DNA of 64,000 bases from Octopus sinensis (taxonomy: Eukaryota): assembly GCF_006345805.1 (NCBI RefSeq), contig NC_043018.1:744001-808000 (forward strand), in the 5' to 3' direction. The notes under the pieces are model-generated. The model ran no database searches. It had not been told where the DNA came from and worked only from the letters and a program-made list of their open reading frames with translations. Both the position numbers and the translations under genes were made by a program. Shown here piece by piece: positions 4,137 to 57,840 of the stretch (the stretch's first letter is position 1; each line of letters starts with the position of its first letter).

Positions 4137-4681
4137 GAAAGGTATTGGTGTCTGGACGACCCAAAATATATCGGTTAAATGCAAATTAAGTGCTGTGGAT
4201 AGAACACGGTTAGGCTCCAACCGCGATAATGATACGAGTAACGTGGGTCATTAATTGGCGTTCCCGTATATAAATTTACAGAATGAGATGAAAACAGCCG
4301 AGGCACTAAATAGATTTCATAACATTTATCACGAAAAAGGTCTTACAGCTGTTTCCGTGATATTTTATACATGTATATTTGGAATACAGTTATAAGTTAT
4401 AGTTGTTTAAATCTTCTAAGGGATAGATATATCTAAAGGCATTCCTGATAATTACCTTAGTAGATATAACTCTTGTAAAAGTTATTCGACAGCAAGTAAT
4501 TTAGCTGGTAAACGATGGTTAAATTTATATAGACAATAAGAAAATGGAGGTAAAATAACAAGTGTGTCCTTTGCGCTAGGAAATTTATTTGATTAGTTAA
4601 GGAAGTTGAGCACGTACCTTAGCTAATTTTTCCTCCATTTTATTATCGTCTGTATATTTGAAATATACATATATATCCTGA
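4137..4681 (-). mobile_element. Penelope-like pseudo-LTR remnant abutting (TA)n, with the 3' half of a hammerhead motif and long internal inverted repeats
   Basis: The minus strand reads GAAAC-AGCT-GTA-AGACC at 4339-4355, with a palindromic stem III. An inverted repeat pairs 4521-4560 with 4620-4659. The element runs into the (AT)n tract ending at 4136. Confidence 0.5.
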
Positions 4682-4699
4682 TTATTTTCTTACATTTAC

Positions 4700-4967
4700 G
4701 TTTTTCAGTCATTTGACTGCGGCGATGTTGGAGCATTGCTTTGAAAGGGTCAAGCGGGGATAGGGGACAAACACAAACACTTAGTCTCATCAAATCAAAT
4801 TGAGAGATATGTATATATTTGCGTTTGAGCGTCTATTCGACGGGCTTATTTTATTTTCCGTCTACCAAATCCACTCGCAAATATTTTGTGGACCCAAGAT
4901 GCCATGCAGTGGAACTGCACCCTTAACTATGTGGTTGGGAAGTAAGCTTTTTACCAATCAGCCACGC
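4700..4967 (-). mobile_element. Degenerate family A SINE
   Basis: The blocks tcagtcatttgactgcggc, ccgtctaccaaatccactc and atgtggttgggaag match family A. Confidence 0.75.
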
Positions 4968-5038
4968 TGATATACATACATACATACATACATACATACA
5001 TACATACATACATACATACATACATACATGCATATATA

Positions 5039-5533
5039 GGCGCAGGCATGGCTGTGTGGTAGGAAGTTTGCTTCACAACCACATGGTTTCGGGTTCAATC
5101 CCTTTGTATGACATCTTGGATAGGTGATTTCTATTATGAATTCGGGTCGACCAAGGCCATGTGAAACGATTTGGTAGACGGAAACTGTGAGAAGCCCATC
5201 GTATATATATATATATATACATGTATGTATGTATATATACATATGTATGTATATTTATACATGTATGTGTATATATATATATGTATGTATATACACATGT
5301 ATGTATATTTGTGCATTTGTCTGTGTGTTTATGTGTGTTCCCCCACCATAGCTCGACAGCCGATGTTGGTGTGCGTACGTCCGCATAACTTAGCGGGTCG
5401 GCAAAACAGAGTGATAGAATAAGTACTTGGCTTACATAGAAGAAGACCTGTGGTCGATTAGTTCGACTAAAGGCGGAGCTCCAGCATGGCCACAGTGAAA
5501 TGCCTGAAACAAGTAAAAGAATAAAAGAATAAG
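5039..5533 (+). mobile_element. Family A SINE, head-to-head with the copy at 4700-4967
   Basis: It has the GGCGCAGGCATGGCTGTGTGG head, the gatttggtagacggaaactg block and the ccagcatggccacag...gaaacaagtaaaaga tail. Confidence 0.85.
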
Positions 5534-6384
5534 AATAAAATTAAGAATATACATAAATATATATGTCTCCATAGACATATATTTATACATATATACATAA
5601 TATATATATATATATGTGTGTGTGTGTACATTGGTTTCACCTACGCACATTACATAATCGTATCTAGTTCTATTTCTTCCAGTCCAGTGTATCACTTTGA
5701 ATGAGCAGTACGTGTAAATCAATGTGAGATTTTTACATATTTGTAAGCCTCAATAGCATTATATATCGAACAATATTATATCGGAATATATATTTCCTAT
5801 CTCTGTAGCTTCATTGTAAGTAGCATACAGGTAGCATTCTATGATTTATAACAAGGTGAATAAGGTTGCAACTATTATATATTTTTCACGGCGGTGGATT
5901 GTCGCCTAGCTCTCTACCTTAGGGTTTTTGCTAATTCAAGTGTATATGATGTAAAAATAAATGAACACAAACGTGAAAATTGAGTCTTTGCTATAACTTG
6001 AAAACATTTCAGGGATTCCAGATCATAATGCGACTGAGATACGTAAGTAATAACAGCAACCGAAGCTGAAAAATTGTTTTACCTTTTATGTGTTGATTGA
6101 AATGTCATTATCGAGATAAATTGGATATCCTTTATGCAAACAATGCACTACAGATGCTTTACATCAATCTATAGCATACAAAACTTTGCAGTCTACGACA
6201 GAGCCTTCGTGTCATCATTCGTGCTTTCACAAATTGCAATCGAATCTCCAATTCACTCTCTACACACCTAAAACAGGAGCTGTTGTATGATGCGACCTTG
6301 GGTTTGATCCATATGAATTATATAATCTCCACTCACATTTGCAGTGGTTTCGAACCTCATCTCGTATAAGCAGAGTTATTAAAC

Positions 6385-55249: not shown

Positions 55250-55390
55250 TAAGGTTGTCCCAAACGTTCGTAGAAAGTCTTGGAAAATAATGGTCTTTAT
55301 TTTGAGGAATAATTTTTGTTGTTTTTGTTAGTACTTGGCGAGTAAAAATTCAATTTTTGCAAGTGTTTACGAACTTTTGGGACAACCTAA
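55250..55390. mobile_element. mariner-type MITE, about 141 bp, 23-bp TIRs, TA TSD
   Basis: The ends read TA|TAAGGTTGTCCCAAACGTTCGTA ... TACGAACTTTTGGGACAACCTAA|TA. Confidence 0.85.
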
Positions 55391-56675
55391 TATTTTCTTG
55401 AGAACAGCAATATACCTAATCTAATAGGTATAAATATAAATCTTGGTTCATAAATATCCAAATTAAAATACAGAAAATGGAGAATTAGCGTTAATATAAT
55501 TCATTAACTAATTTATTGAATTTGTCAACCTTTCAAGACTCAGGTTGTGACTTTAGCGCAGTGATGTCTTTCACAACCTGTAAATCTCTTTCACTACTTT
55601 AAACCACTTTGTATTGTCACTTCAATTAATGTTCATAACTGTATGATTTGATCTAAAAGAACTAAGATTAAAAATAAATAATCCATTCCTAGTCTCATCT
55701 TAGTTTAGTGTATTTTATTACTTCGTTACACGGCATCGTATGTATTAGGTCTTCTTTTAAATTTGGTGACCAGGGTAGAGGAGGTTTAGGAGTTCAAGCT
55801 ACCACGTGGAACAGTTTGCAATATTCATTCATTACTAGTGGACAGTACTTTGTGTACATAATGGAATTTGGATATATATATATTACGGCCATGAAGCATG
55901 ATAATATATCTTAAAATATCAATTATAATGTTTAAACATGATATATGTAAAGTATAATTTACAATGAATAATAATAGTACATTACTTTAACACCTTCTTA
56001 TGCTCGTCGTGATGTTGAATAACATATCAAAGAAAAAGGAATAAAAGAAATATTTTAAACATGTTGGGTAGAACACATTCGACGGCTATTTTCATCAGTG
56101 TTAGATTTTGTCTAACCGACATGAAATAACAAATATCTATATTGCACTGATCCTGGATTTAGCGGATAAGATACTATTGTATTTAAAGTTCATTGACTCG
56201 TCGAGCTACAAATAGTCATTAAATCTACATCAAATTATGTAGCTTCATCATCAGAAAGCGATGCTGCAAAAAATGAAAAGGAACAGGTAATATTAGGAAA
56301 AGGTTTATGTTAAAAACTGGTAATGGCAATAATAAATTGGTTCATAATTTTCTTTAATTAAATTTGACCGTAAATAATACCATCAGTATCAATAAATTAA
56401 ATTAAAGGAATGAGGAAAATGGGATGTAAAGAGTGCAAGGTTAGACAATTGCAGTGCAATTTATTTTTATCATTTTCCTTAGTAGATCGGCTATCACGGT
56501 GCAACGGAGGTCAGGGTTATAATCAACATCCATAAGAGAAGATCTATACAAAAATCAATGCAACTGAAATAATTTATGCTTGTTTTATTTTTAATTAAGT
56601 GGAAATAGGCCAAATATTCATAAAGTAAACTGTTGTTATTTAAAATAACTATTCAACACTTAAAGCGTGCAACGT

Positions 56676-56865
56676 TGGCGAGCTGGCAGAAATGCTACTA
56701 CGCAGGGGGAAATGCATAATGGCAGTTCGTATGTCTTTACGTTCTGAGATCAAATTCCTGGTGGCTGACTTTGCCCTTTCGGGCTTGATGAGAGAAATTA
56801 CCAGCTGATCACTGAGATTGATACAATCGACATAAATTGCTGACCTTGTGAGAAAATTTGAAGAC
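56676..56865 (+). mobile_element. Degenerate family M SINE
   Basis: It has the ggcgagctggcagaa head and the gtctttacgttctgagatcaaattcc and gactttgccctttc blocks. Confidence 0.7.
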
Positions 56866-57632
56866 AATATCTCTCTATTTTTTGAGATGCATAATCTTTG
56901 AAGAACATTTTTTATTATACAATAATTTTGTTTGCAAGAGAATGTAGCACCGCGACTATTTAACATTATTTCAATAAAACGAATCACACAAACAATAATG
57001 TAATTTTGGTTCTCCTTTCCTGATCTAGAAGATATTTGAATAAAGATGTTTCAGTTAAGAAAATACCATAATTTAACCATACATCGTATATCTTCAATGA
57101 TACGACGTGTCTAGATGTATCTTTAAAGTGGTAGATTACTTGAACACTTTCAGTGTTTCTCATTTGATGTTGGTAGTAAATAGTATTATAGTTGTTGTGG
57201 TTGCTGTTAGACCTATATTTCCTGTTCTCGAGCACGCTTATCATGAAGGGTGCTTACGCCGGTCGTTTTTCGAAATAGATTGTATAAAGGTGAGATTATT
57301 TTAAATATACATGTGTGTTCCCATATATAAAAGTCAAGGTGCGATTTTGTGAAAGATATGTAACAACTGTTTCTAGCAGAATTATCATGTTGAAGATACA
57401 TTTTGGTAAAAGAGATTCACTCGGTCTAAAAACAAAACGAATCCAAATAAAAAAAAATATATTTCAATTGTGGGAATAATTATTATTAGTAGAATTTATT
57501 TTAATAGTCTATTACATTAAATTACTTACAAATCAAGCAAGCAGCCAATTGAGTTATATTACTCTTTTCTAATTCAATGTATATATATATATATATATTA
57601 TATATATATATATATATATATATATATATATA

Positions 57633-57840
57633 ACGGGAAGCTTTATGAAAATAAACAAAAGACGAAGGCAGGTGGAATACAAACAAACAATTGTATTAGT
57701 ATGGCGCTCAGGAATATAAATAAAACAAGTCTTTTACGTTTCGAGCCTACGCTCTTCAACAGAAAGATACACAGAAAAGAAACAAAGAAAGAAACAAGGA
57801 GAGAAAAAAAATGCGTGCAGAGGCTAGCGAATCAACATAT
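57633..57840 (-). mobile_element. (TA)n-embedded Penelope-like pLTR fragment carrying a minimal hammerhead
   Basis: It is flanked by (AT)n on both sides and is homologous to 26978-27170. Confidence 0.7.
57730..57767 (-). ncRNA. Minimal type I hammerhead-like motif with a variant core
   Basis: The sequence reads TCTTT-CTGTTGA-A-GAGC-GTAG-GCTC-GAAA-CG-TA-AAAGA. It has a 5-bp stem I, a 4-bp stem II and a palindromic ACGT stem III. Core position A6 is replaced by U. Confidence 0.65.

Follow-up and report, generated by a model that had tools for sequence, protein, structure and literature searches.

Minimal hammerhead motifs at the (TA)n-anchored 3′ ends of five Octopus sinensis repeat families, one of them with a U6 core

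A 64-kb stretch of the Octopus sinensis genome (contig NC_043018.1, positions 744,001 to 808,000; G000:C22:744001-808000, hereafter the window) contains short motifs that resemble the hammerhead ribozyme and lie close to (TA)n microsatellites. The earlier note on this DNA, written by a model from the letters alone, attributed them to mini-elements related to Penelope-like elements (PLEs). The locus raises two questions, namely which elements carry these motifs and whether the motifs are working ribozymes. Having made searches across the 2.72-Gb genome, we consider it very likely that the six motifs represent minimal hammerheads and belong to the 3′ ends of five (TA)n-ending repeat families (A to E), two of which were traced to PLEs while the other three are likely to belong there, and that the short copies likely result from reverse transcription that stopped early. 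The second question concerns above all family A, whose core has a U at position 6.

The window has a GC content of 34% and is rich in (TA)n: it contains 142 tracts of (TA)6 or longer, compared with 407 in randomly drawn genomic DNA totalling 390 kb. It holds six insertions of families A to E, and 39 random stretches of 10 kb gave 10 BLAST matches to these families, which correspond to about 6-7 insertions. Thus, the window is richer in them than the genome average.

Hammerhead motifs of the five families

Reading the sites bore out the three complete motifs reported earlier. The family A hammerhead (57730..57767, minus strand) has the U6 core CUGUUGA, a 4-bp stem II, an ACGU palindrome and a GUA cleavage site. 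It lies in a family A copy (57633..57838, minus strand) that represents a 3′ pseudo-long terminal repeat (pLTR) of a Neptune-like PLE, is enclosed by two (TA)n tracts and matches both pLTRs of the full-length element at locus L121 at 93%. The family B hammerhead (47035-47083, core CUGAUGA) belongs to a B 3′ end at 47035..47168 on the plus strand; its stem II is weak and lacks the G10.1-C11.1 pair, and its stem III has 4 bp with CUAG in the loop. An inverted 5′ copy of this end (46966..47035, minus strand) forms a long hairpin with the main copy. Meanwhile, family C is represented by a copy at 45989..46227 on the plus strand, with a CUGAAGA hammerhead (46020-46088) that has a long stem II and a GAUC palindrome.

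The remaining sites are incomplete. An older family A copy of the CUGUAGA subfamily (26979..27168, minus strand; about 78% to the L121 pLTRs) contains the decayed motif that had been recognized there (27066-27102, minus strand), in which GAAA has become GAUA and stem I is broken. Three 3′ half-motifs had also been claimed, and two of them proved real. The family D copy (4137..4372, minus strand) is cut off inside stem II and keeps the 3′ half at 4340-4356, and the decayed family E copy (47322..47537, minus strand) has a 3′ half at 47486-47502 and a degenerate 5′ half at 47519-47537. The homologues of D (72-79%) contain the full CUGAUGA...GAAAC AGCU GUA motif, and those of E (~85%) combine CUGACGA with a long stem II and the palindrome CAUG. 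Thus, each of the two half-motifs in the window derives from a full hammerhead by truncation or decay. The third, at 54605, is a single-copy hairpin described in the last section. The motifs had further been ascribed to several families because of their unrelated flanks; five families were indeed found, but the sites at 57730 and 27066 belong to the same group, as two of its subfamilies.

Each family has a minimal type I hammerhead and hundreds to thousands of copies genome-wide. The first-look candidates numbered 1029 for A, 648 for B, 1454 for C, 474 for D and 1488 for E, and the 40 scored for each query had identities of 98-100% (A, 40/40), 97-99% (B), 95-97% (C), mostly 72-79% (D) and mostly ~85% (E). 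The core CUGANGA...GAAA...NUH is present in B and C of the window and in homologues of D and E. Non-canonical cores, which had been proposed for all of these elements, therefore apply strictly only to family A, where U6 is a fixed family trait and not decay. Three other structural claims of the earlier note agree with our reading of the six real sites. All have a GUA cleavage triplet, and (TA)5 or longer begins about 91-207 nt from the predicted cleavage site (about 92 nt at 27066), close to the 80-200 nt given before. In addition, stem III is or contains a palindrome, which is ACGU in A, GAUC or AAUU in the C group, AGCU in D, CAUG (often CAUUG) in E and CUAG, in the loop, in B. This palindromy is kept while its letters change between families, and in A, C, D and E it is the site at which two copies pair in predicted co-folds.

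Core positions follow the standard hammerhead numbering. The G10.1-C11.1 pair that closes stem II is present in A and absent in B, C and E, where U...U closes the stem; D has an extra A-G or A-U. In B, C, D and E, one additional nucleotide separates stem II from GAAA (giving U...U, A...G or A...U) and stands in place of the direct G10.1-C11.1 pair.

The minimal hammerheads of metazoan PLEs lie in pLTRs, mostly in single truncated copies (Cervera & De la Pena 2014, PMC4209133). Like the motifs described here, they are of type I, occur in both pLTRs of full-length copies and have an extra nucleotide after A9, a palindromic stem III and a U-rich 5′ flank. In particular, stem II and GAAAC-GU of family A are close to the Acropora Neptune row in Fig. 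S3 of that paper. However, the G10.1-C11.1 pair is missing from B, C and E, and stem II contains long insertions in C and E. In addition, all rows of Fig. S3 considered here have A6, which the descriptor used there required, whereas family A has a fixed U6.

Stem covariation among homologues, which the earlier note had called for, was found in a set of 16 Neptune-type motifs, where 95.5% of the cells are paired and double changes occur in 8 of 11 pairs. It is inflated, since a descriptor requiring the stems had selected 9 of the 16 rows. This bias is one of several points that weigh against reading the motifs as hammerheads. Our strict hammerhead descriptor recovered one of the seven sites in the window plus an extra match at 62928, while 20 shuffles gave 0-1; in 390 kb of random genome it found 3 matches, and 10 shuffles gave 0-2. 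The strict descriptor is too narrow and performs near chance. Furthermore, the Rfam Hammerhead models had no match at E ≤ 10 in the three sub-regions scanned, and a scan of the whole window had no Hammerhead among the 150 matches listed, which were dominated by microsatellite matches to microRNA models. Motif searches of the kind suggested as a check thus lent no support, and it is homology and covariation that carry the case rather than counts of motifs.

Source elements and (TA)n anchoring

Family A leads to a protein-coding element. Two pLTR copies surround remains of an open reading frame (ORF) in 6 of 8 fetched family A regions, and the pLTR pairs are 96-99% identical in the three copies checked; thus, family A was active recently. 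L121 has a stop-free frame of 975 codons that matches RVT_1 (E 2.7e-8), with the N-terminal part in another frame. The L121 protein contains DKG, YIDD, a CX4CxxC linker (P0001 699-707) and a GIY-YIG-like end split by CxxC, at which the Pfam GIY-YIG match is weak (E 0.016-0.032), and the closest homologues of the element protein are unnamed or hypothetical proteins. Neptune-clade endonuclease-containing (EN+) PLEs share with family A a C-terminal GIY-YIG, a CX2-5CxxC linker, pLTRs, a tail and a (TA)n bias (PMC8557442). Family A appears to be a Neptune-like EN+ PLE by its CX2-5CxxC linker motif rather than by a tree, and this use of linker motifs for clade names counts against the assignment. 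A contig of 2,574 nt in sequencing run X7 also covers the family A ORF; that it comes from RNA is a guess.

Family B was linked to a comparable element. In L212/L222 (G000:C2299), an ORF with reverse transcriptase (RT; GLYRDDGL) and a GIY-YIG-like part runs into a ~3-kb untranslated region (UTR) with the B hammerhead at its end and a 97.8% inverted copy at its 5′ end. Pfam matches the RT weakly and gave no nuclease match for this ORF. The linker CNC..CPL is seen together with GLYRDDGL, and these linker and RT motifs may point to the Nematis clade. At L082, an RT fragment of the same kind lies between inverted B copies. The 3′ UTR consists of ~3 kb of TA/TG-rich simple-repeat-like DNA common to the copies. 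Thus, part of the microsatellite-like DNA of this genome travels inside retrotransposons. The link to PLEs that had been proposed from the motifs is therefore supported for A and B, both of which trace to RT and GIY-YIG elements.

To estimate the anchoring to (TA)n, we followed contig C1 in genome order and took the first 30 matches to the family A pattern, unranked by score. A (TA)4+ tract lies 70-140 nt past the cleavage site in 24 of these 30 copies, against a background of 5.2% genome-wide and 7.4% at the same loci, so the targeting of (TA)n claimed in the earlier note held against both controls. In 28 of the 30, the alignment extends less than 100 nt upstream of the core, and ORF remains were found near one locus. 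In the homologue sets of the five families, the 3′ end lies within 25 nt of (TA)3+ in 27/29 copies of A, 28/29 of B, 18/28 of C (10 more after a tail), 25/29 of D and 12/19 of E (5 more after a tail), where the background is 8.9%. An inverted upstream copy occurs in 21/29 copies of B, 9/28 of C, 13/29 of D, 4/19 of E and 0/29 of A; these sets, like those of the 3′-end counts, are top-scoring matches and hence biased. This bias and the 5′ extents of the A copies, which are lower bounds for divergent subfamilies, weaken the case for truncated insertion at (TA)n. The copies of a family have fixed 3′ ends, variable 5′ ends and optional tails, the last in A, C and E.

Inverted 5′ copies, tails and a (TA)n bias are described for PLEs (PMC8557442), and so are nicking in AT-rich DNA and a tail that provides two start sites for RT (PMC11167929). 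On this model, the nuclease of the element would nick AT-rich DNA and prime cDNA synthesis there. Reverse transcription would begin in the tail near the RNA 3′ end, where two start sites are available, and would give short copies by stopping early and inverted ones by switching template. In a tandem transcript, two hammerheads would pair via their palindromic stems III; cleavage would be slow and is probably assisted by the element protein. Since A and B trace to protein-coding PLEs, their short copies look like mostly 5′-truncated insertions, not retrozymes.

Families C, D and E likely derive from PLEs as well. Against this stands the failure to find a master ORF for any of the three by pairwise extension, longer fetches, an upstream pattern or extension of ORF fragments; coding PLE copies sharing the flanks, for which the earlier note proposed a search, were thus found for A and B only. 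Four ORF fragments near C, D and E copies were tried as masters and rejected, as extension showed them to be ORFs of other elements. Copies of D share up to ~420 nt of upstream sequence. Family C has clustered 5′ starts, an optional tail and relatives with the AAUU palindrome; pairwise extension revealed no common upstream sequence among 30 loci, and a pattern from the upstream DNA of one copy had one genome match. Family E occurs as ORF-less head-to-tail units of 527-529 nt at two loci (L216 and L217, both partial tandems).

The short elements might instead be true non-autonomous, retrozyme-like units, as the earlier note suggested, whose tandem RNAs would be excised by the hammerheads and re-inserted by PLE proteins. 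The ORF-less tandems of E and of one A locus (four 510-nt units), the internally deleted A copy L017 and the clustered 5′ starts of C without a common upstream sequence speak for this. In addition, retrozymes have been derived from PLEs (bioRxiv 10.64898/2026.07.22.740005), and the non-LTR retrozymes are likewise non-coding hammerhead units related to PLEs (PMC7229834; bioRxiv 10.64898/2026.07.22.740005). However, the retrozymes described there are tandem repeats of 170-400 nt that contain canonical hammerheads of type I and give rise to circular RNAs, whereas here the motifs are minimal and match no Rfam Hammerhead model, the tandem units measure 510-529 nt, and most copies, including those in the window, are solo and end at (TA)n. 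Furthermore, coding elements adjoin the ends of A and B. The copies also retain the DNA upstream of the cleavage site; thus, their 5′ ends are not ribozyme cuts. We regard such units as a less likely explanation, which fits only part of the short elements; truncated insertion of PLEs is preferred.

The U6 core of family A

Hammerheads in PLE ends beside (TA)n are already known PLE biology, and the new point is the fixed U6 in a recently active, high-copy family. A 28-nt family A pattern with positions 6 and 7 left free had 8,892 exact matches in the genome (control 0), of which 8,548 have U6 and 344 another base. The core is thus CUGUNGA, and not the A6 core of the strict minimal hammerhead consensus. 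Among 100 non-U6 matches listed, we counted by hand 69 C, 24 A and 7 G, a spectrum that suggests scattered point mutation. At position 7, the 30 genome-order copies have A in 12, U in 10, C in 7 and G in 1.

Related elements differ from family A in this respect. Of 80 metagenome loci coding for related proteins (31-64% identity), 21 have a sense-strand motif, and 24/24 such motifs carry A6. The sister family F, which lies outside the window (L385-L404, G000:C1) and has the same stem II as A, had 9,438 exact matches; by hand count, all of the 100 matches listed have A6, 68 of them with C4 (CCGACGA) and the rest with the canonical U4. Stem I pair 1.4 is G-C in F and C-G in A. Judged from sequence, U6 is derived and fixed in family A, since the related elements and family F carry A6.

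The motif has changed little within family A. Three subfamilies defined by their flanks and 10-20% apart (90 of 117 distinct copies, with 27 singletons) differ in 32/175 flank columns and in 1/28 motif columns, namely N7; many of these copies were chosen by exact motif, so the set is biased. In the largest subfamily, H17 can be either A or U. The family keeps C3-G8, G5, A9, G12, A13, A14, G10.1-C11.1 and the NUH triplet, and only N7 and H17 vary.

One might argue that U6 is a neutral founder mutation, spread by one damaged master, in a motif under no selection. A single ancestral change accounts for all U6 copies, and 1/28 against 32/175 is only suggestive with three subfamilies and a partly motif-chosen sample. 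However, an unselected motif should drift at the rate of its flanks, whereas A copies found via the 3′ flank alone still have CUGUNGA with U, A, C and G at N7. Furthermore, in four sequencing runs, dozens of contigs match L121 in the hammerhead stretch only and then diverge, so that contigs with unlike flanks have just the motif in common. A neutral founder is accordingly improbable.

The only positions at which the subfamilies vary, 7 and 17, are the two that a hammerhead leaves free. We therefore read the U6 motif as a weakened hammerhead that may still cleave, with assistance, and is under selection, a reading towards which we lean only slightly. Published experiments weigh against it. In a full mutant scan, changes of CUGA other than a C3-G8 swap gave low activity (PMC9901934), and a natural A6C hammerhead is slow in Mg2+ (PMC3088659, PMC7151607); thus, U6 may be inactive. 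In addition, insertion in vitro of a Poseidon element did not require cleavage (PMC11167929).

These points bear on a further possibility, that the motif of family A has lost its RNA-cutting activity and is kept as a hammerhead-shaped signal for protein binding or dimerisation, or as part of the pLTR promoter. If no cutting is needed, the U-turn would be free to change. Indeed, two sister lineages altered it independently, with U6 in A and C4 in about two thirds of the F matches listed (68/100). The mutants of CUGA are mostly poor (PMC9901934), in vitro insertion proceeded without cleavage and no RNA ends were mapped to the site (PMC11167929), and Naiads spread without canonical hammerheads (PMC8557442). 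On the other hand, the core is conserved except at N7 and H17, the pattern expected of a working hammerhead, and U4C keeps enough activity in vivo in a viroid (PMC3088659). A non-catalytic role is less likely than weak cleavage, though a serious candidate.

The preferred reading of a weak, selected ribozyme has a parallel in phage Bcep176, whose natural A6C hammerhead also has position 6 changed with the rest of the core kept (PMC3088659, PMC7151607). However, that change is to C and not U, at a single phage locus, and the ribozyme is slow in Mg2+ and better in Mn2+, whereas family A is minimal, is predicted to need dimers and has ~8,500 copies. A stronger proposal would make family A the first natural A6U hammerhead, active and dimer-forming, with a retuned U-turn (needing, e.g., the element protein or Mn2+), selected across subfamilies and missed by searches based on CUGANGA. 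We put this forward only tentatively, as it is doubtful in its full extent.

We found no natural A6U or CUGUNGA hammerhead in the literature searched, which covered mostly non-subscription papers, so that absence in print is not established. The largest survey of PLE hammerhead variants, by Lunse et al. 2017 (cited in PMC6765202), may already list U6. For Penelope elements of octopus or other cephalopods with a hammerhead or of the Neptune clade, the same search returned only PMC8557442 as relevant.

If U6 cleaves, the hammerhead core tolerates more than its current consensus allows, and censuses that rely on descriptors overlook thousands of ribozymes in each genome. If it does not, the fold persists without catalysis in a highly successful retrotransposon, which bears on what PLE hammerheads are for. 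Either way, this genome offers a natural series on one scaffold, with canonical CUGACGA, C4 and U6 versions on the same stem II.

Other motifs and repeats

The half-motif reported at 54605 was rejected as a hammerhead remnant, as its only genome match is to itself (1 candidate) and it has neither a CUGA-like 5′ half nor GAAA. The sequence there (54607..54679, minus strand) forms a 73-nt hairpin (z -7.4) that is flanked by (TA)n tracts and has a perfectly paired stem of 16 bp; it has no homologues and matched no Rfam family at threshold. It could be a fold-back remnant or an unlisted microRNA precursor.

More hammerhead-like motifs with other stems were seen in flanks and random stretches (L099, L104, L244, L246, L259 and L406). 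Thus, the genome has more ribozyme-bearing families than the five of the window. At L405 (G000:C1:95583500-95589700), a Neptune-like element has a UUGAAAA (U3-A8) core at its end and an inverted 5′ copy; this core variant is already in print.

An AT-rich island at 54156-54318 of the window is 77% like L166 770-936; it is probably a further 3′ remnant of a retrotransposon and has no hammerhead. Tandem arrays of a common repeat that resembles a short interspersed element occupy 9096-10039 and 12369-13715, with periods of ~184 nt and 235 nt, and the same repeat is found solo at 1464, 28259, 35446, 37900, 41892, 47736 and 52991. Finally, an open stretch of 173 codons on the plus strand (20540-21061) resembles, and may be, a pol fragment of an LTR retrotransposon.

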